Of a stretch of DNA of 55,149 bases, positions 2,966-55,043 are shown one piece after another (within the stretch, counting starts at the first letter, position 1; each line of letters opens with the position of its first letter). The DNA lies in the IMG/VR virus record IMGVR_UViG_3300037149_000085, positions 1-55,149 of that record; one strand, 5' to 3'. The DNA comes from a virus (taxonomy: Duplodnaviria > Caudoviricetes). The position numbers and the translations under genes were made by a program. The notes under the pieces are model-generated. The model ran no database searches and was not told the DNA's origin. It saw nothing but the letters and a program-made list of their open reading frames with translations.

Positions 2966-4165
2966 ATGTCGATCATCACAAATCCCGATGGTACTACATC
3001 CACTGTTCTCCCTAATGGGCAGGTGGTGCCGAACGTTCAGCCGACCGTGGGAAGCATTACTCCCGCAACAACCCCCGCCATCGGGACGCTACCCCCGGCT
3101 GCTTCCTCCCTATATATTGACCCCACGGCAAACCCCGATCCTAATGATCTTAGCGACTTCTCCAAGGCAACGTCGGGGGCTACCATCCAGTTACCAATTA
3201 GGGGTGAGAAACAATTCATTCCAAATCAAGTATCGATCCCTAACCAGAGCACCACACCGAGTGGTGGTATTAACGCGTTTAGTGCTCAGCCTAACAGTAT
3301 CTTGGCTGCAGGACAAACGAACATATCCCGAGCTAACCCAAATACAGTAACCGCTAGCAGCTTCTACCTTAAAGCGGCGAAGGCAGCGTTTAAAGACTAT
3401 ATAACAGTTCGCATCCCACATCGAGGATTTGATTCGAGCGGAAACCCGAATCTTAATAACACCGCTACTTTTCGGTTTCTAGTCAACCCCACCACCATAC
3501 AGGTTAACAGGGAGACCATTGATCAACAAGCACTAACCCGCGATGGATGGCAGTTTGGAGTATGGGGAGAAGGGCTTGGACGAGTTAGTATGTCAGGAAC
3601 GACGGCGGGAGAATATTTCTCTCTAGGGTTGGCAGATGAATATTCCTATTTTACCAAATCATATCGCAACCTCATGGCCTTGACTTCCTTTTATGAAAGT
3701 AATGGGTATTTCTGGGAAGGGGAGCAGGCATTCTCGGGGACGTTACAAGGGGTGTCTCGCAAATTTATTAAATGCCATCAGGATGTGTTGTTGACAGTAG
3801 GGAACTTTGTTTGGAGCGGGATGTTCGACTCTTTCAGTGTCCATTTTGACGCCGAGAAGCCCTACTCTGCAACCTTTGAGTTGTCATTTATCTCATGGAG
3901 GGAACGATTCCTCTCAACATCCCCCTACGATAGCAATTTGTTGGACACAGATACTCGGAGAGGGCACTCTTACAGCAATTACTATACAACAGCAACACAG
4001 CAGGAGATGCAGAGACTTCAACAAGGAACACCTTCTATGACTGCATTACCTTCACCCAACTTCCACATGCCTAATACGCTGTTGAGCTCCACCGCTGCTG
4101 CAGCGATGCAAGCAACATTGAATTGGTCTCCAGCCCAGATAGCAGCTAAGGTAGACGGCAGTTAA
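2966..4165 (+). CDS. Putative tail tube initiator/baseplate protein
   Basis: FLVNPTTI..TRDGW..WGEG..SMSGTT..GMFDSFSVHFDAEKPY pattern typical of tube-like initiator proteins; paralogous to the C-terminus of 1451..2962. Confidence 0.55.
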   Translation: MSIITNPDGTTSTVLPNGQVVPNVQPTVGSITPATTPAIGTLPPAASSLYIDPTANPDPNDLSDFSKATSGATIQLPIRGEKQFIPNQVSIPNQSTTPSGGINAFSAQPNSILAAGQTNISRANPNTVTASSFYLKAAKAAFKDYITVRIPHRGFDSSGNPNLNNTATFRFLVNPTTIQVNRETIDQQALTRDGWQFGVWGEGLGRVSMSGTTAGEYFSLGLADEYSYFTKSYRNLMALTSFYESNGYFWEGEQAFSGTLQGVSRKFIKCHQDVLLTVGNFVWSGMFDSFSVHFDAEKPYSATFELSFISWRERFLSTSPYDSNLLDTDTRRGHSYSNYYTTATQQEMQRLQQGTPSMTALPSPNFHMPNTLLSSTAAAAMQATLNWSPAQIAAKVDGS

Positions 4166-12300: not shown

Positions 12301-12565
12301 CTCCGATGGCGTTGCCTTGACCGCATCCACAGCAGCCGGGGCTAGTGTTAGTGTGGCCACTCAGTATGGAGTTGTGTACACAGCAACAGGGGCGAACTTC
12401 ACTACAGGTGGGTTGCTCTACGCTACGGTCGGTGGGGCTTTGACTCAGGACTTCAGCAACTTGACGACTTCGGTACAGTGGGTTGTTTGTGTGGGCAAGG
12501 CCTTGTCTCCCACCACATTCCTGTATGAACCACAAGTGCCGACTCGAATAATTGTTGGATTCTAA
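9380..12565 (+). CDS. Virion structural protein (helical N-terminus, C1q-like and beta-rich C-terminal domains)
   Basis: 1061-aa ORF in the tail operon; VTFDTVDFD..FTIQTAGNYAVTG C1q-like pattern near the C-terminus. Confidence 0.5.
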   Translation: MSSAINPITGAISSATSLLTNTLTSTNGIINTASGTSGAATPISDLNDKLMYPIRCKGNLTLVRDVQKFNPLGDPTIETYYHKALEAGRFSEKSIADAQHFLQQKQALLMKHIEGYFHMNSLAVDGQLSDKPRAFKYVIDSINILKTVQAYQKEIIGLVGALTKNIGILSMIEQNMLGVIQQNLNSIAMLMNEICNWCLPKNISLPNILGAGLWRFNGFNFPLSAFKPNLKFDLNFAFSSCKLSAPSVSLGQSCPSSVVISGLSYGSAPFAPPLGGVMPTADQLSDPTFVASLLAPSTSAPVYNPSTNPAVLLMGSVPNPVAIISNYSMPPATYAENIVSILPSTQPLVSDVAPTAATYADLRKLLVQNVTLNAVVASEFEPVLTSTWLLYINSCRTGREGQWLQEFQASYDQWLQPAITELAQTPVPWNNVVDGTGTVAGPRSTLLGSLLLPMSIGDQGAILWKLSYIEAAVLGYPRSTAWDAYSDSRYISSFTQQDLDYSTTVLTSATASISLGANEATYPVTCTYPTAIGNVLQQVIAMADKNIQANSSWKSSQAQLRYTYNQFAEAVEVDRFSQFWREFNSNLATLLVQDPYVVGFVVSYPASLDSAIDPLGDSSIYNRIQTDAATRNRSWTPGTPLLPIPTAPYLTSNAISSYICLQGNTDEAPTNTQYWRPFTPADDASLFNWVGIWGASGVYNVNDAVYYTPTGWTVNQGEYNFDPATFLLRPDVQSLSIPTQMAMLDTNQTYASLLLQQNNISTVVQNAIATSQQQLATFQSFGFGVELDGNPFLVPVGNGIPVTFDTVDFDLTGNVTSLSQFTIQTAGNYAVTGALNWDIGDTGTRSVIVLNGTTVMASASLTGAGPETLSFSANYYCNQGDVITVVASHSLSVGQQVIAGSAFSMMQVSTTADTPVPAQDNTPAPSSGSTTATFTSSEAFPALTVVGVSSTGTIAPIDPTTVQFDSNGNAVYPFSDGVALTASTAAGASVSVATQYGVVYTATGANFTTGGLLYATVGGALTQDFSNLTTSVQWVVCVGKALSPTTFLYEPQVPTRIIVGF

Positions 12566-12623
12566 AATTTCTCTCTTTGTATTTGTATCAAGGTGTATAC
12601 TTAAAAAACGGGAGGAGGGTCAA

Positions 12624-13715
12624 ATGCTAAAGACATACAAATACAAGTTAGAACCAAACAAGCAACAGCGATACGCACTTGCCCGCACTCTCGATGTGTG
12701 CCGCGAGTTGTACAATGATGCCCTCTATGAGCGCAAGATGCACCGAGTTAGTTGTTACGATCAGTGTAAAGAATTGCCAGCACTCAAGGCTGCTTTTCCT
12801 GTTCACAAGAATGTCTACTCGCAAGTGTTGCAATCAGTACTGGATAAACTGGATAAGTCATTCAAGAACTTCTTTCGCTCTGGCTTCGGCTTTCCGAGAT
12901 TCAAGAGTGCTCGACGCTTTGACTCATTCACATATCCGCAAAGTGGATTTGAACTATCAGGTAAGCAACTGTCGCTGTCGAAGATTGGCAACATTCGCGT
13001 GCATCTCAGTCGTAAACCCCCTGCCGACGCCGTAGTCAAAACCTGCACCGTAAAGCGCTCTGTCAACGGATGGTTTGCAACACTCGTATTTGAGTACACA
13101 GCACAACCCCTCCCCGCGTCAGACTTGGCTGTCGGCATCGACGTTGGTGTCACGACCTTCGCAACGTTCTCTGACAGCACTGAGATACAGAACCCTCGAA
13201 TCTACCAGAATGCGCAAGCAGAACTGCGTGTGGCCCAACGTCGTGTTGCTCGACGTGTCAAAGGCAGCAACCGAAGACGCAAAGCAGTCATACTGCTTAA
13301 GAAGTTGCACGAGCGCATTGCGAACTCTCGTAAGGATTTCCTGCATAAGCACTCGACCGCTGTCATCAGAAAGTACGGAACAATCGTAGTCGAAGCACTG
13401 AACGTTTCAGGAATGTCACGCGGCACCCTTGCTAAACAGATACTAGATTGCAGTTGGTCGGAGTGGTTTAGACAGTTGACGTACAAAGCGGAAGATGCTG
13501 GTCGCCAGTTCACTGCCGTAGACCCGAAGTACACAAGTCAAACTTGTCCTAAGTGTAGTTTCGTCAGTCGTGAGAATCGCAAGACGCAAGCAGACTTCGT
13601 TTGCATCTCTTGCGGATACTCAGCGAATGCCGACTACGTTGGGTCAGTCAACATATTGGCTCGGACAGAGCCATCAGGCGCTAACGTCGGGAGATTAAGC
13701 CCATGCGTAGCCTGA
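12624..13715 (+). CDS. tnpB: IS200/IS605-family TnpB RNA-guided endonuclease (orphan, no tnpA)
   Basis: MLKTYKYKL..ELYN N-terminal HTH; RuvC I GIDVG, II VVEAL, III NADY; CPKC/CISC zinc ribbon; SD GGAGGAGG before the ATG at 12624. Confidence 0.95.
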   Translation: MLKTYKYKLEPNKQQRYALARTLDVCRELYNDALYERKMHRVSCYDQCKELPALKAAFPVHKNVYSQVLQSVLDKLDKSFKNFFRSGFGFPRFKSARRFDSFTYPQSGFELSGKQLSLSKIGNIRVHLSRKPPADAVVKTCTVKRSVNGWFATLVFEYTAQPLPASDLAVGIDVGVTTFATFSDSTEIQNPRIYQNAQAELRVAQRRVARRVKGSNRRRKAVILLKKLHERIANSRKDFLHKHSTAVIRKYGTIVVEALNVSGMSRGTLAKQILDCSWSEWFRQLTYKAEDAGRQFTAVDPKYTSQTCPKCSFVSRENRKTQADFVCISCGYSANADYVGSVNILARTEPSGANVGRLSPCVA

Positions 13716-47424: not shown

Positions 47425-48589
47425 CGGTAGTTGAGGAGCGCAATCCCAGATTTTTAATCTGGGTAAGCGACGACTTTGATTGAGAAAGGAGGATACCGTG
47501 ATTCAGACACAACTAAAACTTCGGATGTGCAAGACGCAAGAGAAGACTGCTGAGTCATGGCTTCCTATTCTCGGCTCTGTTTTCAATTTTGCAGCCAGGA
47601 AGGTAGAACTCAACGCCAAAGACAAAATCTATTTCTCCAAGAACGATTTCCAGAACCTACTGGCGAACCACGGAGAGCGACTGGGGATTCCTAGCCACAC
47701 GTTGCAGGGAGTTCTCTGCACTGTGCACGATGCGTGGAAGCGTTGCTTCAAGAAGACTGCTGGCAAGCCACGTCTTAAAGGAATGCGGAACAAACTCACC
47801 AGCATTCCGTTTCCTGACCCCATCAAGGCTCCGAAAGGTAATCGCATCACTCTGCCGAGTCTGGGTAGTGTCCGCTTCTACAAGATGGACATTCCAGATG
47901 GTAAAATCAAGTGCGGTCGCATGGTCAAACGTGCATCGGGTTGGTATCTCTGCCTGTTCATAGATGCAGAGCCGAGGAAGATTGAGCGGACTGGGTATGG
48001 AGAAATTGGAATCGACTCAGGCTTCTCGAATCTACTGACAACTTCGGACGGAGAAATCATCGAACACCCACGGGAGTTGGAAGCCAGTGCAAAACGATTG
48101 GCACAAGCACAACGTGGCCACGACAAACAGTTGGCAGCAAGGATTCAGGAACGGGTTGCCAACCGCAAGAAAGATAGAAATCACAAAATCACGACACGGC
48201 TAGTCAGTGAGAACGTGATAATCGTATGGAGCAAAGATAACCACAAGGGAATAGCCAAGAAGTTTGGGAAGAGCGTAGCGAGTTCTGCTCACGCACAGAT
48301 TCGAGGAATGCTGTCGTACAAGTCGCCCACAAGCGGTACGACGTTCATCGAGACTGCTTCAAAAGATTCCACCAAGACTTGTAACGAATGTGGTAAGCCA
48401 ACTGGCCCCACAGGACTCGCAGGATTGTCGGTAAGAAGTTGGGTGTGTAGAGACTGTGGAGCCTCGCACGATAGGGACGTAAACGCCGCTATCAACACCC
48501 TCAACATCGGGGCAGGATGTGCCCACGAGGTTGCCTATGTCTAACATCGGCAAGTCAGGAATCCCAGACTTTAAGTCTGGGAGCATCAA
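47425..48589 (+). mobile_element. IS605/IS1341-type element A (tnpB only), inserted after ATGAA
   Basis: LE CAAT-CCCAGATT..AATCTGGG; RE GAAT-CCCAGACT..AGTCTGGG-AGCATCAA; ends closely match element B. Confidence 0.85.
47498..48544 (+). CDS. tnpB: TnpB with non-canonical RuvC-II
   Basis: GTG start with SD AGGAGG; GIDSG (RuvC I), DRDVNAAIN (RuvC III), CNEC/CRDC zinc ribbon; RuvC-II reads IVWSKDN. Confidence 0.9.
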   Translation: MIQTQLKLRMCKTQEKTAESWLPILGSVFNFAARKVELNAKDKIYFSKNDFQNLLANHGERLGIPSHTLQGVLCTVHDAWKRCFKKTAGKPRLKGMRNKLTSIPFPDPIKAPKGNRITLPSLGSVRFYKMDIPDGKIKCGRMVKRASGWYLCLFIDAEPRKIERTGYGEIGIDSGFSNLLTTSDGEIIEHPRELEASAKRLAQAQRGHDKQLAARIQERVANRKKDRNHKITTRLVSENVIIVWSKDNHKGIAKKFGKSVASSAHAQIRGMLSYKSPTSGTTFIETASKDSTKTCNECGKPTGPTGLAGLSVRSWVCRDCGASHDRDVNAAINTLNIGAGCAHEVAYV

Positions 48590-50280: not shown

Positions 50281-51246
50281 ATGGTTGAGACACCCAAGAT
50301 CGACGCTTTCGCCGCTACAAGCCACTACGCGGCCTCATTCTCCGAAGCTAAGAATGCCCTTGTTTCCGGAATTGCCGACCAGCAAATCTTCAACGCAGAC
50401 TTTGTGGCTGCAAAAGACGTCATCGTGCACGTTGTGGAAGCAGCTATGGACAAGGCCCAAGACGAGTCCCGGTCTCTCCGTCGCAGCCTCGGCCTCGACT
50501 ACCCTCAGTGGGAGAACAACGACCCTCGTTGGAGCATCATCTACCCCCCGCAGCTCAATAACATGCCCGGGGCGGCGAAGAAACTTCAGAAGTTCAAAGG
50601 TGAGGGGTACATCGGCGTTGTCCTTCAGATAATGGAGGAGGCTGCAGTTCTGGCTGAGTTAGTCAAGAACGTAAAACCCTACATCGTGAAGGGCCGCAAA
50701 CCTCCCGTCCTCACTGATGAACAGAAAGTTCAGGCTGAGCGTGACAAGCTGAACACGGGCATCTGCCCAGTGTGTATGCGTCGGCAGAAGCTGACCTTCG
50801 ATGGAAGCCTGGTTGCCCACGGCTATGAATTGAAGTGGGGCATGCGCAACGGTGTTTGCTTCGGACACGGTTACAAAGCGTGGGAACTGTCTCCCGAGGG
50901 AGCTATCGAGTTCGTCACCGCGTTGAAGAACAGCCTCAAGAATCTTAAAGCGCACCTGATTAAGTTGGAGGCCGGAGAGGTCGATTTGGTGATGGGGACG
51001 AAGCGCGTGAAGGAAAAGCAGTTTGGGTACAGTCGGGAAGTCCCCTGCGAGTATCACAAGGGTGAGGAAGGGTTTGAGGAAGCGCTGGTGACCACTATAG
51101 CGATGACCCGCCGCGATATTGTGGGTATCAAAGGTACCATCCCGGAAGTTGAGACCCGGGTACAAAGCTGGAAAGCGCAGCCGCTGCAGTTCGGCGGAGC
51201 TGAAACACAAGATCGTTGGAAGAGTCGGCTTTTGAATAAGAAATAA
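50281..51246 (+). CDS. Hypothetical protein with zinc-binding motif
   Basis: 321 aa; GICPVC..LVAHGY..CFG motif. Confidence 0.75.
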   Translation: MVETPKIDAFAATSHYAASFSEAKNALVSGIADQQIFNADFVAAKDVIVHVVEAAMDKAQDESRSLRRSLGLDYPQWENNDPRWSIIYPPQLNNMPGAAKKLQKFKGEGYIGVVLQIMEEAAVLAELVKNVKPYIVKGRKPPVLTDEQKVQAERDKLNTGICPVCMRRQKLTFDGSLVAHGYELKWGMRNGVCFGHGYKAWELSPEGAIEFVTALKNSLKNLKAHLIKLEAGEVDLVMGTKRVKEKQFGYSREVPCEYHKGEEGFEEALVTTIAMTRRDIVGIKGTIPEVETRVQSWKAQPLQFGGAETQDRWKSRLLNKK

Positions 51247-51261
51247 ATATTTGCTAGTAGA

Positions 51262-51291
51262 TTGACAAAAGATGACTTTCAGCAGTATTGT
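51262..51291 (+). promoter_or_regulatory. Promoter for the leader/tRNA locus
   Basis: Perfect TTGACA (51262-51267), 18 nt spacer, TATTGT. Confidence 0.65.
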
Positions 51292-51467
51292 TAGAGAGTA
51301 CCTCTTCGAGACCTCTTGACTGGGTGGGACTCGGAGATATAAGCCCAGCGGAGGATGGTTCACTCCAGAGTAAGAACCTTGCAAGGGAATTCTGAGATTG
51401 CAGGAATCCTTGCGAAAACAAAGCAATCGGGATCAGCTCCTGCCCAAAATGGGGGCACACCAAAATC

Positions 51468-51551
51468 ATGACGATGACTACACAAACTCGAATTACGAAA
51501 ACCACTATCCAAACGGGTAGCGGCTTCGAGTTTTGGTTGGGCAACTGGTAA
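51468..51551 (+). CDS. Thr/Ile-rich attenuator leader peptide MTMTTQTRITKTTIQTGSGFEFWLGNW
   Basis: 27 codons; 8 Thr and 2 Ile among the first 16; ends TAA TAG TAG; overlaps alternative hairpins. Confidence 0.65.
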   Translation: MTMTTQTRITKTTIQTGSGFEFWLGNW

Positions 51552-51575
51552 TAGTAGCCCGAGTCAAAGAGCTTG

Positions 51576-51605
51576 AAGCCGCCCTTAACCGGGCGGTTTT
51601 ACTTT
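51576..51605 (+). terminator. Intrinsic terminator (attenuator 3:4 hairpin)
   Basis: AAGCCGCCC-TTAACC-GGGCGGTTT followed by TACTTT. Confidence 0.8.
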
Positions 51606-51676
51606 GACCCATACAGCGGGTGTTTAAGCTGTAAATGACCCCTATATGGGTACAGTCGTACCTAATTAGGGGTTAC

Positions 51677-51753
51677 AGGCGCATAGCTCAGCCCGGTAGA
51701 GCCCTCCGCTGATAACGGAGAGGTCGGTGGTTCGAATCCACCTGCGCCTACCA
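51677..51753 (+). tRNA. tRNA-Ile(GAT)
   Basis: Acceptor AGGCGCA/TGCGCCT, anticodon arm CTCCG-CTGATAA-CGGAG, T arm GGTGG-TTCGAAT-CCACC, encoded CCA. Confidence 0.97.
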
Positions 51754-51882
51754 AGATTATGGGCAGATGACTTGGTTCCTCACTGCCAGAGCCGGGGGCA
51801 ATGGTGCCGCACGGTGAGCAAATGAGGCACTCGACTCCTGCGGCGTGAGTTACGCCTCTGCCGTAGGAGAAACGTTATTAAG

Positions 51883-51944
51883 GCGCAAGTATCGCGCAAT
51901 ATAAATATGATACGCGCAATATACGACAAGTTTAATTGCGCGTA
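51883..51944. repeat. CGCGCAAT direct and inverted repeats (putative protein-binding sites)
   Basis: CGCGCAATATA at 51893 and 51913 (20 bp apart); inverted ATTGCGCGTA at 51935-51944; partial GCGCAA at 51883. Confidence 0.6.
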
Positions 51945-51983
51945 TAAAAAGGCCGGGTTAGCTCACACTCAGTATTAGTCCTA

Positions 51984-52148
51984 ATGAGGACAAAGGTACT
52001 GTGGGCCATTAGAGCGAAGGATGGACGCTGGACTATACGTAATGACGACGAGGTTGACCCCAGCAAAGTGAACCCTGATGAATGGGCACTCACAAAGTTC
52101 GAGCTCCTCGTGTTCAAAGAAGACCCTCCCAAGTGGAGACCAAGTTAA
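51984..52148 (+). CDS. Small hypothetical protein (54 aa)
   Basis: MRTKVLWAIRAKDGRWTIRNDD..; preceded by AGTATTAG-N5; stop codon abuts the tRNA. Confidence 0.55.
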   Translation: MRTKVLWAIRAKDGRWTIRNDDEVDPSKVNPDEWALTKFELLVFKEDPPKWRPS

Positions 52149-52227
52149 GTTGGCGTGGCACAGTGGCCGACTGCACCTGATCCGTACTCAGGAATCACCG
52201 GGGGTTCAAATCCCTCCGCCAGCTCCA
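52149..52227 (+). tRNA. tRNA-Thr(CGT), atypical
   Basis: Acceptor GTTGGCG/CGCCAGC, anticodon arm CCTGA-TCCGTAC-TCAGG, T arm GGGGG-TTCAAAT-CCCTC, T73 then CCA. Confidence 0.8.
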
Positions 52228-52237
52228 AAGGACACAT

Positions 52238-52426
52238 ATGAACGACAGACAGTACTGGAATAAACGGTTGGATGAAGCGTACGCAAAGCGACCTAGGACC
52301 GCCGAGGAGTTCGCGGATGAACAAGTTCGCGAAATGCTTCACGCTATTCATCAACGATACGACGCTGATAAGGTGACTAAATCTTTAGCCGCCCGACTTC
52401 AGGGATTAAGGGCAGCACAGTATTAG
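52238..52426 (+). CDS. Small hypothetical protein
   Basis: 62 aa; SD AAGGA. Confidence 0.55.
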   Translation: MNDRQYWNKRLDEAYAKRPRTAEEFADEQVREMLHAIHQRYDADKVTKSLAARLQGLRAAQY

Positions 52427-52431
52427 ATCGT

Positions 52432-52628
52432 ATGTCATATGAAAGTGAAACTCGAAGAACGTTTAACCGGAATCGCAAGCTGTACCTCAACACAGTGAAG
52501 GTGGGTAATAAGCATTTACCCGACCCGGTTCATATGATATATGGCTATGATCCGGACGGTACCAGAGGAGCCGGGACAAGGTTATCGGTGCGGCAGGCGA
52601 ATAAAGTTCTGAAGCCCTTCAACATGAA
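52432..52628 (+). pseudogene. 5' part of a gene interrupted by IS605 element B
   Basis: Removing 52629-54152 gives ..KPFNM-NPKLRARLL.. in frame with 54153-54300. Confidence 0.7.
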
Positions 52629-52664: not shown

Positions 52665-53141
52665 TTAGCGAGTGCCTTGGTTCTCAACATAACGCTTGAG
52701 GACCTCAAGAGTCACGCCGCCAGTAGAGGCGGCAAAGTAGCCAGAGTTCCAAAGAGTGCGGGAATGGTCGCCCCAGAACATTGAGCCGTAGCGGTTAAGG
52801 AAGAATTTTGAGGACACGGATTTGAGTCTAGCAACCACAGTGGAAACAGAAGCGGACGGCGGAACCTCCAGCAGAAAATGTATGTGGTCAGACTCACCAT
52901 TCACTTCGATTATTCGGTACTTGTAGTAAGAGGCGATGCGAGGAAACAGGGCAAGCAGGTATCTGAGACGGGAAGGAGACAACACTTGGCGACGGAATTT
53001 TACGACGAAAACGATGTGGAAAATCAGCCGATGGACACTGTGGCTACTTGTTGCGTAATCGGCGTTCCCGATTCGTTTGCTCCCGTACTTGATGTCTTGC
53101 TGGTTCGGACTCGGAAGGACGTTCTGCCTCGTATGCTTCAT
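52665..53141 (-). CDS. tnpA: IS200/IS605 Y1 (HUH) transposase TnpA
   Basis: HIVFVVKFRR, DHIHFL (HUH), LKSVSS, LWNSGYF, RYVENQ (catalytic Tyr). Confidence 0.95.
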   Translation of the reverse strand: MKHTRQNVLPSPNQQDIKYGSKRIGNADYATSSHSVHRLIFHIVFVVKFRRQVLSPSRLRYLLALFPRIASYYKYRIIEVNGESDHIHFLLEVPPSASVSTVVARLKSVSSKFFLNRYGSMFWGDHSRTLWNSGYFAASTGGVTLEVLKRYVENQGTR

Positions 53142-54110
53142 CTGCGGGAATGCTCCTCATCCAAGTATTACCCAGAAATCCCTTGTGTCATAGCAAAATC
53201 GCTCATCACCAAATACCAGCGTAACAAGAAGCTGGTTACGGTCAGCCACATCGTTCTGCCCATCTGCGGGGACAAAGGTAAGCAAATCAAGCGGGAGAAG
53301 AATGGACTCAGGATTCCTGCGCTGTTCAAGAAGGAAATCTTGCCAATCACATTCCCTAAGCCTGTAGTTGGTTGGGTGAGAAGCATCGAGTTTTTCAAAC
53401 GCAAAGGTCAATGGCTTGCATCGGTGTGCTATAACACCCACGCCCAGCCGCAAATCGAAGTCAAAGGTTGCATCGGAGTAGACCGTAATTCTGTTGGAAA
53501 TGTCGCTGTATTGGCAGACCCACAGAACGGTCAGGTCAGACACCTTGGCTTCAATCCCGCTGCGACAAAGGACAACTGGCGTCGTCGCAGGGCAACACTC
53601 AAGAGTCAAGGGAAGATTCGTACTCTGCGACAGTTGAGCCAAAAGCAGTCAAGACGTACAAAGCACGAGAATCACATAGTGTCTAAAGCAATCGTTTCCT
53701 ACGCCAAAACACACCGCAGAGCAATCGCCGTGGAAAACCTTGAGAGCGTCCGCAAGCCTAAGAGCAAAATCCGTGGCTATGTCGAGCGTTCACAGTGGGC
53801 TTTCTACCAGCTATTGCAGTACATCACGTACAAAGCTGCCTTGCTTGGCGTTCCCGTAATCAAGGTCAATCCCGCTTATACATCGCAGGATTGCTCAAGG
53901 TGCGGACAGCGGACAAAGCCGAACGGGAAAGCATTCGTTTGTGCTTCTTGCGGACACAAAGACCACAGGGATAGCAACTCAGCCTTCAACATCGGCATGA
54001 GTGGCAATCGGACAATCGACGTGGAATTACTTGCGGACTCAGCGAGCCGCAGGTCGGGTGTACTGGTGACCCCGTTTCTGGCGACTACGGAGGCATACGC
54101 TTATGCCTAA
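53031..54110 (+). CDS. tnpB: TnpB RNA-guided endonuclease (divergent N-terminus; start uncertain)
   Basis: IGVDRN, IAVENL, HRDSNSAFNI RuvC triad; YTSQDCSRC/CASC zinc ribbon. Confidence 0.9.
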   Translation: MDTVATCCVIGVPDSFAPVLDVLLVRTRKDVLPRMLHLRECSSSKYYPEIPCVIAKSLITKYQRNKKLVTVSHIVLPICGDKGKQIKREKNGLRIPALFKKEILPITFPKPVVGWVRSIEFFKRKGQWLASVCYNTHAQPQIEVKGCIGVDRNSVGNVAVLADPQNGQVRHLGFNPAATKDNWRRRRATLKSQGKIRTLRQLSQKQSRRTKHENHIVSKAIVSYAKTHRRAIAVENLESVRKPKSKIRGYVERSQWAFYQLLQYITYKAALLGVPVIKVNPAYTSQDCSRCGQRTKPNGKAFVCASCGHKDHRDSNSAFNIGMSGNRTIDVELLADSASRRSGVLVTPFLATTEAYAYA

Positions 54111-54619: not shown

Positions 54620-55043
54620 CCAATTCGCCCCGCAATCCCTCCGCTTGCGGTGGGTAAGGGGCGAGGCTATTTACCTTGATTCTCAATATATTTCTTGAGA
54701 ACTTCCAAAGTAGCTCCTCCTACGGAACAAAGGAAGTAACCGCTGCTCCACATGGTTCTTTTATGGTTGCCCCAGAAGAAAGAGCCGTAGATGTTAAGGA
54801 TAACTTGAGCGGACTTGGATTTGAGGATGGAAACGATTGTGGATAACTGGACGGTGGGCGGATAGGACAAAAGAAAATGGATATGGTCTGCTTCTCCATT
54901 TATTTCAGTAATAGAACAGTGTAGTTCTTTAGCGAGTTCACCAAGCACAAAGTAAAGAGACTTGCTAATTGTAGGTGTAAGGATTTTTCTACGGAACTTA
55001 GTGCAGAGCACAACATGGACAGTGAGATGATAAATACAGTGAA
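54620..55043 (+). mobile_element. Truncated IS605 element C (LE and tnpA remnant; tnpB and RE missing)
   Basis: Follows ATGAA (54615-54619); LE CAAT-CCCTCCGC-TT-GCGGTGGG; tnpA homology stops near 55040. Confidence 0.7.
54667..55041 (-). pseudogene. tnpA: 5'-truncated IS200/IS605 transposase TnpA
   Basis: HCIYHLTVHVVLCTKFRRK..DHIHFL..KYIENQ; no plausible start upstream of the HCIY segment. Confidence 0.8.

Follow-up and report, generated by a model that had tools for sequence, protein, structure and literature searches.

Introduction

In the enterobacteria, leader-peptide attenuators control the thr, ilvGMEDA, trp, his, leu and pheA operons, and in Escherichia coli attenuation at the pheST leader (pheM) controls an aminoacyl-tRNA synthetase. 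T-box leaders bind uncharged transfer RNA (tRNA) directly and without translation; they are built on a conserved scaffold, and the genes under their control serve tRNA charging by synthetases, transport and biosynthesis. In mycobacteria, leaderless cysteine-rich short open reading frames (ORFs) attenuate the operons downstream of them. The carriage of tRNA genes by phages has so far been explained by codon usage and, more recently, by escape from tRNA-targeting defences, and to our knowledge the regulation of these genes has hardly been addressed to date. The locus described here lies at positions 51,262 to 52,227 of a Caudoviricetes phage sequence, the IMG/VR record IMGVR_UViG_3300037149_000085, which was analysed over its whole length of 55,149 nucleotides (nt) and is called the window throughout. 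It consists of a promoter-like site, a 27-codon leader ORF (upstream ORF, uORF), a set of alternative helices and two tRNA genes, and it is most likely a ribosome-mediated transcription attenuator setting the output of a phage tRNA operon.

Like the enterobacterial attenuators, the phage leaders (that of the window and those of its relatives) have a promoter-proximal ORF with regulatory codons, helices 1:2, 2:3 and 3:4, an intrinsic terminator, and a layout in which a stall on region 1 would give the antiterminator. Their reading of several amino acids recalls thr (Thr, Ile) and ilv (Leu, Val, Ile); pheL is treated in a passage of PMC3082878. Conversely, the phage leaders would regulate tRNA genes and not enzymes, with a product that acts directly on the sensor. 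One phage genome holds several leaders, each fitted to its own tRNA set and with up to seven amino acids per leader. The phage stop codon lies in the loop of a hairpin atop the antiterminator, and there is no sequence homology to the enterobacterial leaders, in that no Rfam leader family is matched. The pheM attenuator resembles the phage leaders in tying part of the decoding machinery to how much charged cognate tRNA is available, whereas its target is a synthetase in place of tRNA genes and only one amino acid is sensed. The E. coli tRNA-Phe gene pheV was checked as a possible precedent with a Phe-rich leader and rejected, since no leader precedes it, only a plain promoter.

T-boxes couple transcription antitermination to the state of a particular tRNA named by a triplet, as the phage leaders would, but the latter have an ORF in every case and do not match the T-box model. 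The mycobacterial short ORFs are similar to the leaders of two related phages (G004 and G009) and of one strain variant of the window (a contig of run X3) in that the regulatory ORF starts at or near the transcription start; they differ in serving genes of cysteine metabolism instead of tRNA genes and in belonging to another host phylum. In the openly accessible literature that was covered, no leader-peptide attenuator ahead of tRNA genes was found, either in phages or elsewhere. Classical leader-peptide attenuation, here applied to a phage tRNA operon and working like the thr, ilv, trp, his and pheST leaders, is the best-supported reading of the sequence.

The Leader and Its Alternative Helices

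The uORF lies behind a promoter-like site, as leader-peptide attenuators require, and codons 2-16 comprise 8 Thr, 2 Ile and 2 Gln. All four Thr codons are used, the one cognate to tRNA-Thr(CGT) three times, together with both Ile codons read by the GAT anticodon. The frame closes with three in-frame stops, TAA and then two TAG (51552-51557). A preliminary description, made from the letters of the window, had named a TTGACA promoter, a 27-codon uORF with 8 Thr and 2 Ile in its early codons, three mutually exclusive helices with a 3:4 terminator at 51576-51600, and downstream genes for tRNA-Ile(GAT) and tRNA-Thr(CGT). All of these elements are present where it had placed them (Table 1). The −35 hexamer equals the consensus, the helices were recovered by a repeat search, and ARAGORN and Rfam agree on both tRNAs. 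The sensing of Thr and Ile that it had proposed is incomplete: the codons for both amino acids are there, but the leader carries Gln codons as well, and these match the tRNA-Gln(TTG) genes of the same cluster in relatives. The likeness to E. coli thrL holds as an analogy and fails as homology: up to E = 10, none of the Rfam leader families gave a match.

The fold of 51460-51610 has a free energy of −57.6 kcal/mol, compared with −34.4 ± 3.9 kcal/mol for shuffled sequences (z = −6.0), and 0 of 200 shuffles are equally stable. The terminator hairpin has a local value of −18.2 kcal/mol, and its stem begins 22-24 nt past the stop codon. For a footprint scan, a 30-nt ribosome footprint was masked codon by codon and the remainder folded to minimum energy. 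With the A site on codons 1-13, the antiterminator has 7-11 of its 11 pairs and the terminator 0-6 of its 9; with the A site on codons 14-28, the stop included, the terminator has all 9 pairs and the antiterminator none of 11. The masked-codon folding suggested in the preliminary description therefore gives the antiterminator for stalls on codons 1-13 and the terminator from codon 14 to the stop, and in silico the helices 1:2, 2:3 and 3:4 of the window are mutually exclusive, with the position of the ribosome setting the choice. The two states of the window are nearly isoenergetic (−52.0 vs −51.1 kcal/mol).

The same figures bear on coincidence, that is, on the terminator of an upstream operon standing beside a random Thr-rich ORF. 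The feature was picked after 55 kb had been read, and Thr is the commonest residue in the proteins of this phage (10%), both of which would favour a chance find. Conversely, no shuffle is as stable as the leader. The promoter pattern is also unique in the window, with one occurrence in 55 kb against 0.07 expected and at least one match in 7 of 100 shuffles, and the same pattern stands upstream of leaders in two relatives, G001 (two copies) and G002. The leader has homologues in three more (G004, G009 and G003), and the family-wide match between leaders and tRNAs given below contradicts coincidence as well, which is thus extremely improbable.

tRNA Clusters and Leaders in Related Phages

A profile of one 793-residue protein of the window retrieved 26 related viral contigs, which include records of 456, 332, 224, 221 and 187 kb with at least 64, 49, 39, 39 and 31 tRNA matches, respectively. 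The sole cultured match of this protein is in the Tunturiibacter phage Tunturi_5, with 52.6% identity over 97% of the length. tRNAs were called in G001 and nine further relatives (viral records labelled G001-G010, with loci labelled L and a number), and all leader counts refer to the tRNA regions examined, not to all tRNA regions of these genomes. Leaders were sought with a screen blind to composition, which asks for an ATG-started ORF of 10-70 codons that ends shortly before a hairpin and T run ahead of a tRNA.

The tRNA genes of the relatives are grouped by amino acid, and most groups are preceded by a leader. Five types of cluster are distinguished. Type a, with Ile(GAT) twice, Thr(CGT, GGT, TGT) and Gln(TTG) twice, has a leader in 4/5 genomes (exception G002). 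Type b, with Val/Ala/Gly/Asp/Cys/Glu, has one in 6/7 distinct genomes (exception G007), G008 and G010 being duplicates of G006. A leader precedes type c, with Tyr/Leu and at times Ser, in 6/6 genomes, and type d, with Gln(CTG)/His/Arg/Asn/Lys plus Trp and Met in one genome, in 2/2. Type e, with Pro/Met/Phe, has a leader in 5/6 distinct genomes, these leaders having been identified from their content when ORFs were scanned at 81 unit starts. In types a-d and in Tunturi_5, the leader stop codon is followed after 19-31 nt by a GC stem with a T run; the distance is 19-27 nt in nearly all leaders of types a-d.

The homologous Thr/Ile/Gln-rich leaders of G004, G009 and G003, three megaphages, precede type a clusters and have terminators. 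The window leader has codons for each anticodon species of the full type a cluster, namely Ile GAT, Thr CGT, GGT and TGT, and Gln TTG. G001 has two clusters. The first comprises Val, Gly, Ala, Cys, Asp and Glu tRNAs behind the promoter pattern, a strong Shine-Dalgarno sequence, a 38-codon ORF with Ala, Val, Gly, Asp, Cys and Glu making up 25/37 residues, and, 6 nt before the first tRNA, a terminator. The second comprises two Tyr and seven Leu tRNAs, and its leader holds all six Leu codons and both Tyr codons ahead of a terminator. In G004 and G009 a −10 element lies 7 nt before the leader ATG, which implies that these putative leader ORFs are leaderless or nearly so. Judged from these comparisons, the proposed circuit of the window is one member of a family-wide system and not a single case.

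In principle, the leader RNA could bind the anticodons of uncharged tRNAs directly through its cognate triplets, as a T-box does and with no ribosome involved. Such a mechanism would fit the presence of alternative helices and the fact that tRNAs are at issue both in the regulated genes and in the matched triplets. Against it, the triplets always stand in one ATG-started open frame whose stop keeps a fixed spacing to the terminator; the start codon is served by a strong Shine-Dalgarno sequence in some leaders and is a leaderless ATG, 7 nt past the −10 element, in others; and the strain variant of the window keeps the frame through a three-base length change. A cmscan of 51000-52500 against Rfam, run up to E = 10, returned nothing beyond tRNA and insignificant hits, with no leader family besides rnk_pseudo at E = 6.5, and the T-box model had no match over the same range and threshold. 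Direct binding is thus very unlikely.

Exact DNA patterns of the window leader had 0 matches in viral contigs; their 10 matches in metagenome contigs were rejected, all being chance with unrelated flanks. A pattern built from the G004 and G003 leaders found four loci, three already known and one identical to G004. In a blastn search against cultured phages just the body of tRNA-Ile matched (37 records, at most 7% of the query) and the leader was unmatched. Two hits of the structural screen (L064 13773 and L069 11932) were dropped as probable chance, with no tRNA match and distances of 127 and 300 nt, and in L056 the screen chose a longer ORF in another frame, the actual leader being the ORF at 1298.

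Leader Residues and Downstream tRNAs

The main evidence is the match between the residues of a leader and the tRNAs behind it. Leader ORFs were scored against five amino-acid sets, with enrichment expressed relative to phage protein composition. All 23 metagenomic leaders score best, among the five sets, with that of their own cluster. The enrichment on the diagonal is 2.4, 2.0, 2.4, 2.2 and 2.8 for the five types, and 0.2-1.4 off the diagonal. The five types differ strongly in base composition, each matching the tRNA set behind it.

The tRNAs of Tunturi_5 follow another grouping, which makes this phage an independent test. According to the composition-blind screen, each of its three units has a leader and a terminator ahead of it. 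Unit 1 (Leu, Cys, Tyr, Ser) has a leader with 16/31 cognate residues (p = 4e-4), unit 2 (Gln, Gly, Thr, Pro, His, Ala, Phe) one with 23/36 (p = 5e-3), and unit 3 (Trp, Asp, Met, Lys, Val, Arg, Glu) one with 29/48 (p = 2e-7). The three leaders score best with their own sets (3/3), and foreign sets give p of at least 0.36. The Cys tRNA of Tunturi_5 is grouped with Leu/Tyr/Ser, and the leader of that unit has two Cys. Watson-Crick codons are present for 6/9, 11/12 and 11/14 anticodons of units 1, 2 and 3. The proposal that the attenuator is tuned to its downstream tRNAs is in this way supported comparatively, by 23/23 leaders and 3/3 in Tunturi_5, with the qualification that leaders within a type are homologous, so that the independent comparisons number about five types plus three Tunturi_5 units and not 26.

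Cognate residues are also placed unevenly. In the 26 leaders pooled they make up 343/520 residues before the last ten codons and 62/260 within them, and in the window leader 12 of the first 16 residues after Met and none of the last 10. Such a position ahead of the last ten codons is required by a polarity in which a stall gives read-through.

The short ORFs might instead be ordinary small phage genes with terminators, or a small non-coding RNA, their Thr/Ile richness coming from base composition. The pattern is common, a short ORF standing before 4/13 terminator-like sites in the window and 13/38 in G001; the structural screen is thus unspecific alone, and the weight rests on the composition match. 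The third Tunturi_5 leader ORF (L087 22074-22223, gp308) is annotated as a hypothetical protein, and the 5' part of the window transcript is structured, which would also suit a small gene or RNA. Such genes would not be expected to come in five compositionally distinct types that match their own tRNA sets in 23/23 cases, to follow the regrouped tRNAs of Tunturi_5 in 3/3, or to keep cognate residues out of the last ten codons, and the small ORFs tested near the locus had no PHROG or other family match. This explanation therefore has very little probability.

Conservation of the Proposed Switch and Points Against It

The four type a leaders (window, G004, G009 and G003) align, and RNAalifold on them keeps helix 1:2 and the terminator, with 4/23 pairs changed on both sides. 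With a ribosome on codons 5-12, region 2 pairs the stretch between hairpin B and the terminator in 4/4, and when the 3' arm of the terminator is withheld this pairing extends into the terminator 5' arm. The stop codon is in or next to the loop of hairpin B, atop a long 2:3 antiterminator. By eye, the antiterminator arms differ in sequence among the window, G004 and G003 yet remain complementary. Column-wise covariation of the 2:3 helix, with the G009 helix mapped on the alignment, gave no usable table, because the sequences pair in different registers. The conservation that the preliminary description had asked to be sought in related phages is thus found in the type a homologues, which keep helix 1:2, helix 2:3 and the terminator despite sequence change. 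In a wider set, the terminator 5' arm pairs with upstream RNA more than it does when the intervening sequence is shuffled in 22/22 leaders (mean 0.82 vs 0.59), and in 11/22 the observed value is equalled by no more than 5 of 100 shuffles.

A number of observations weigh against attenuation as the mode of control. The first group concerns the fold. In footprint scans of 15 leaders, a clean switch was obtained for two (window and G004) and a partial loss of the terminator for four, whereas in 9/15 the terminator never falls below half its pairs in minimum-energy scans. Pairing of the terminator arm is also frequent in partial transcripts whose ribosome stands at the stop or is missing. If the locus is an attenuator, the choice between antiterminator and terminator must be kinetic, as in classical attenuators such as that of trp, where the terminator exceeds its rival helix in stability, because minimum-energy scans and partial transcripts give no simple thermodynamic switch. 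The type e leaders were chosen by content, and their terminators are weak, distant or absent nearby.

A second group concerns the genomes and the window itself. Some clusters have no leader: the type a cluster of G002 directly follows a protein gene, the Val/Ala/Gly cluster of G007 follows an HNH gene, and G005 has 37 tRNAs in a single mixed array. In the window, the ribosome-binding site of the uORF is a purine run only, weak and distant, behind a structured 5' untranslated region (5'UTR) of about 165 nt. Just two of the expected tRNAs are seen, with an insertion sequence (IS) element after tRNA-Thr; the remaining type a genes either lie beyond the IS element or the contig end, or were lost. 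To these are added the low specificity of the structural screen and the homology of leaders within types. From the arrangement of the elements we infer that ribosomes translate the uORF and that transcripts end at the hairpin, and likewise in which direction the locus responds, and to what.

Part of these points would be accommodated if the leader sensed translation of its cognate codons but acted through Rho access, ribonuclease cleavage and the stability of the tRNA precursor, or polymerase pausing, with the hairpin and T run serving mainly as a processing or stability element. Nine of the 15 leaders lack a clean minimum-energy switch, the Pro/Met/Phe leaders have no canonical terminator nearby, and in the window 75 nt and two extra hairpins separate the terminator from tRNA-Ile. 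In most relatives, however, the hairpin and T run lie 4-21 nt before the first tRNA. Strong GC stems with T runs stand 19-31 nt past the stop in types a-d and Tunturi_5, terminator 5' arms pair the 3' part of the ORF more than shuffles do, and the antiterminator forms in 4/4 Ile/Thr/Gln leaders. An output of this kind is therefore unlikely, although it is less improbable than the other alternatives.

Proposed Mechanism

The elements of the locus, their alternative folds in silico, their conservation and the residue match between leaders and clusters across the phage family are observed, and from them an attenuation cycle can be drawn. Transcription would start from the sigma-70-like promoter, and a ribosome would translate the 27-codon leader behind RNA polymerase. 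When Thr, Ile and Gln aminoacyl-tRNAs are plentiful, the ribosome would reach region 2 and the stop in the loop of hairpin B. From there it would separate region 2 from the start of region 3, and the terminator would fold and transcription end before tRNA-Ile. With slow decoding, the ribosome would stall on region 1 and region 2 would pair with region 3; the antiterminator, topped by hairpin B, would sequester the terminator 5' arm and allow read-through into tRNA-Ile(GAT), tRNA-Thr(CGT) and beyond. In the absence of translation, helix 1:2 would form and the terminator would be active.

Phage tRNAs would accordingly be made if the host supply is short for the Thr-rich proteome, degraded or uncharged, and their production would be switched off once the supply is sufficient. 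Since the products are tRNAs reading the leader's own codons, the circuit would exert negative feedback on decoding capacity, and since they relieve the stall the loop would be self-limiting. More generally, it is probable that this family of jumbo phages of Acidobacteriota, Tunturi_5 included, has tRNA operons sorted by amino acid, each with its own multi-codon leader-peptide attenuator, and that decoding speed is measured per codon class and the limiting tRNAs are topped up.

Organisation of the Locus and Strain Variation

Table 1. Features of the tRNA locus in the window, with helices as recovered by the repeat search.
Feature	Position	Strand	Details
Promoter, sigma-70-like	51262-51291	+	−35 51262-51267, 18-nt spacer, −10 51286-51291; 10/12 matches
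Structured 5' untranslated insert, promoter to uORF	51299-51461	+	folds into hairpins
Leader ORF (uORF), 27 codons	51468-51551	+	stop 51549-51551
Region 1	51484-51510	+	over Thr/Ile codons; outer arm 51484-51492 (with 51525-51533 in helix 1:2, 9 nt, 100% complementary), inner arm 51505-51510
Region 2	51515-51534	+	pairs region 1 (via 51515-51520 and 51525-51533) or region 3 (via 51520-51530)
Hairpin B	51537-51562	+	stop codon 51549-51551 in loop; top of antiterminator
Region 3	51563-51584	+	51572-51582 pairs region 2 (51520-51530; helix 2:3, 11 nt, 91% complementary) or forms terminator 5' arm
Intrinsic terminator	51576-51605	+	helix 3:4, stem 51576-51584 / 51591-51599, 6-nt loop, T-rich tail
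Two further hairpins, terminator to tRNA-Ile	51612-51676	+	second abuts tRNA
tRNA-Ile(GAT), CCA encoded	51677-51753	+	ARAGORN, Rfam
54-codon ORF in Ile-Thr spacer	51984-52148	+	ends at base before tRNA-Thr
tRNA-Thr(CGT), CCA encoded	52149-52227	+	ARAGORN, Rfam

A scan of the whole window against Rfam at gathering scores returned the two tRNAs and nothing else. The terminator was missed by the consensus terminator scan and found by a separate scan for a hairpin with a T run; the probable cause is that the T run can be drawn into its stem. The two further hairpins behind it possibly serve processing. Neither a sigma-70-like promoter nor a terminator was found between tRNA-Ile and tRNA-Thr, which is consistent with co-transcription of the two genes. 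The separate promoter near 51971 that had been suggested for tRNA-Thr gains no support from this negative, nor is it refuted by it.

Within the spacer, short direct and inverted repeats of an AT-rich motif occupy 51882-51960, before the 54-codon ORF, and an RNA-library contig differs from the window at many positions of these repeats. A T4-late-like octamer at 51900-51907 was rejected as a signal, one being found against 1.37 expected. ORFs of about 25-65 codons that end 0-7 nt before the next tRNA occur between tRNA genes, as in the window and in many spacers of L056, L057 and L071; they appear to be protein genes embedded in tRNA operons.

Strain variation was followed in four sequencing runs, all of them consisting of assembled contigs, which carry no information on transcript starts, ends or levels. 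In a low-depth contig of run X3, a promoter piece (51260-51298, with 3 differences) is joined to the uORF region, and 51299 to about 51464 gives way to a short stretch of other sequence. In our own reading, its uORF keeps the same open frame with codons 2-4 changed and one extra codon. The 5'UTR insert of the window is, on this comparison, variable and dispensable for the module, since it is lacking in the variant contig of run X3 and since G004 and G009 have no 5'UTR. Neither the leader nor the insert has a second copy elsewhere in the window. In two other strains, 51254-51795 shows none of the differences listed, and in one contig all 18 differences fall in 51796-52394. RNA-library contigs cover 51332-51445, 51810-52078 and parts of the tRNAs; the uORF is uncovered, and they are uninformative either way. 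One of them, from RNA library X20, comprises 51332-51445 followed by unlike sequence. The stretch 51299-51461 may be a separate element, possibly mobile or expressed.

The Phage and Its Relatives

The window is the entire IMG/VR record, with a completeness estimate of 18% of a genome, and its phage is present in peat metagenomes. On sequence grounds the window is one part of a jumbo phage genome; synteny with the 100-kb record G001, at about 45-55% amino-acid identity, extends over its large virion genes. The cultured relative Tunturi_5 is a soil phage of 308,711 bp that infects Tunturiibacter psychrotolerans (Acidobacteriota), with 43 tRNA genes according to its authors (PMC11924767). Neither "leader" nor "attenuat" occurs in the text of that paper proper (PMC11924767). 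The feature table of Tunturi_5 (PP885688.1) is without tRNA genes at 229500-257000 (L087), where 38-41 were found here.

Genes of the IS200/IS605 type lie in the window at 12552-13715, 47480-48544, 52665-54110 and 54667-55011 (three TnpB-like ORFs and two Y1-transposase-like ORFs), and the IS element directly after the tRNA-Thr locus may have shortened the tRNA cluster. The 321-residue gene upstream of the tRNA locus has one viral relative, L001 in G001, and the region downstream of L001 is without tRNA; the 62-residue ORF downstream of the locus has no viral relative. G001 contains, at about 3141-3203 (in L024) and immediately past the Tyr/Leu tRNA cluster, a piece of 21 codons that shares 90% identity with the end (3') of the 321-residue gene. 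The adjacency of this piece to that cluster suggests that tRNA modules may have moved by recombination at the end of the 321-residue gene.

Further observations concern the surroundings of the tRNA clusters. HNH endonuclease genes stand beside or inside clusters in G007 (L072, upstream of 3191) and in Tunturi_5 (L087 10649-11170 and 25864-26229), and in G007 the HNH gene occupies the position expected for the leader. ARAGORN reported tRNAs with the CTA anticodon (labelled Pyl), amber-suppressor-like, in L062 (G004), L063 (G005), L066 (G003), L067 (G002) and L078 (G009), which hints at a possible recoding of TAG in these megaphages. On the minus strand of L023 in G001, at about 6475-6250, three tandem repeats, each made up of a hairpin and a short motif that recurs, are flanked by a phage sigma-factor-like gene on one side and by the Val/Ala/Gly leader promoter on the other; the second copy of the promoter pattern precedes the repeats.

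Significance

If the leaders work as outlined, these phages would have placed their tRNA genes under the codon-sensing logic that bacteria use for amino-acid synthesis, and each leader would be a written record of the codons that the phage treats as limiting. The leaders would also offer orthogonal, ready-made sensors with which the decoding of as many as seven amino acids could be followed at once. As a rule for annotation, short ORFs before tRNA clusters are probably regulatory, including one now labelled a hypothetical protein. The system is directly testable, because the cultured pair of Tunturi_5 and Tunturiibacter psychrotolerans, which is available (PMC11924767), carries three such units. 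For the phage family, the arrangement would amount to a modular, self-correcting control of translational capacity during infection, and it could double as an alarm raised when a host defence or a starvation response cleaves individual tRNAs or leaves them uncharged.

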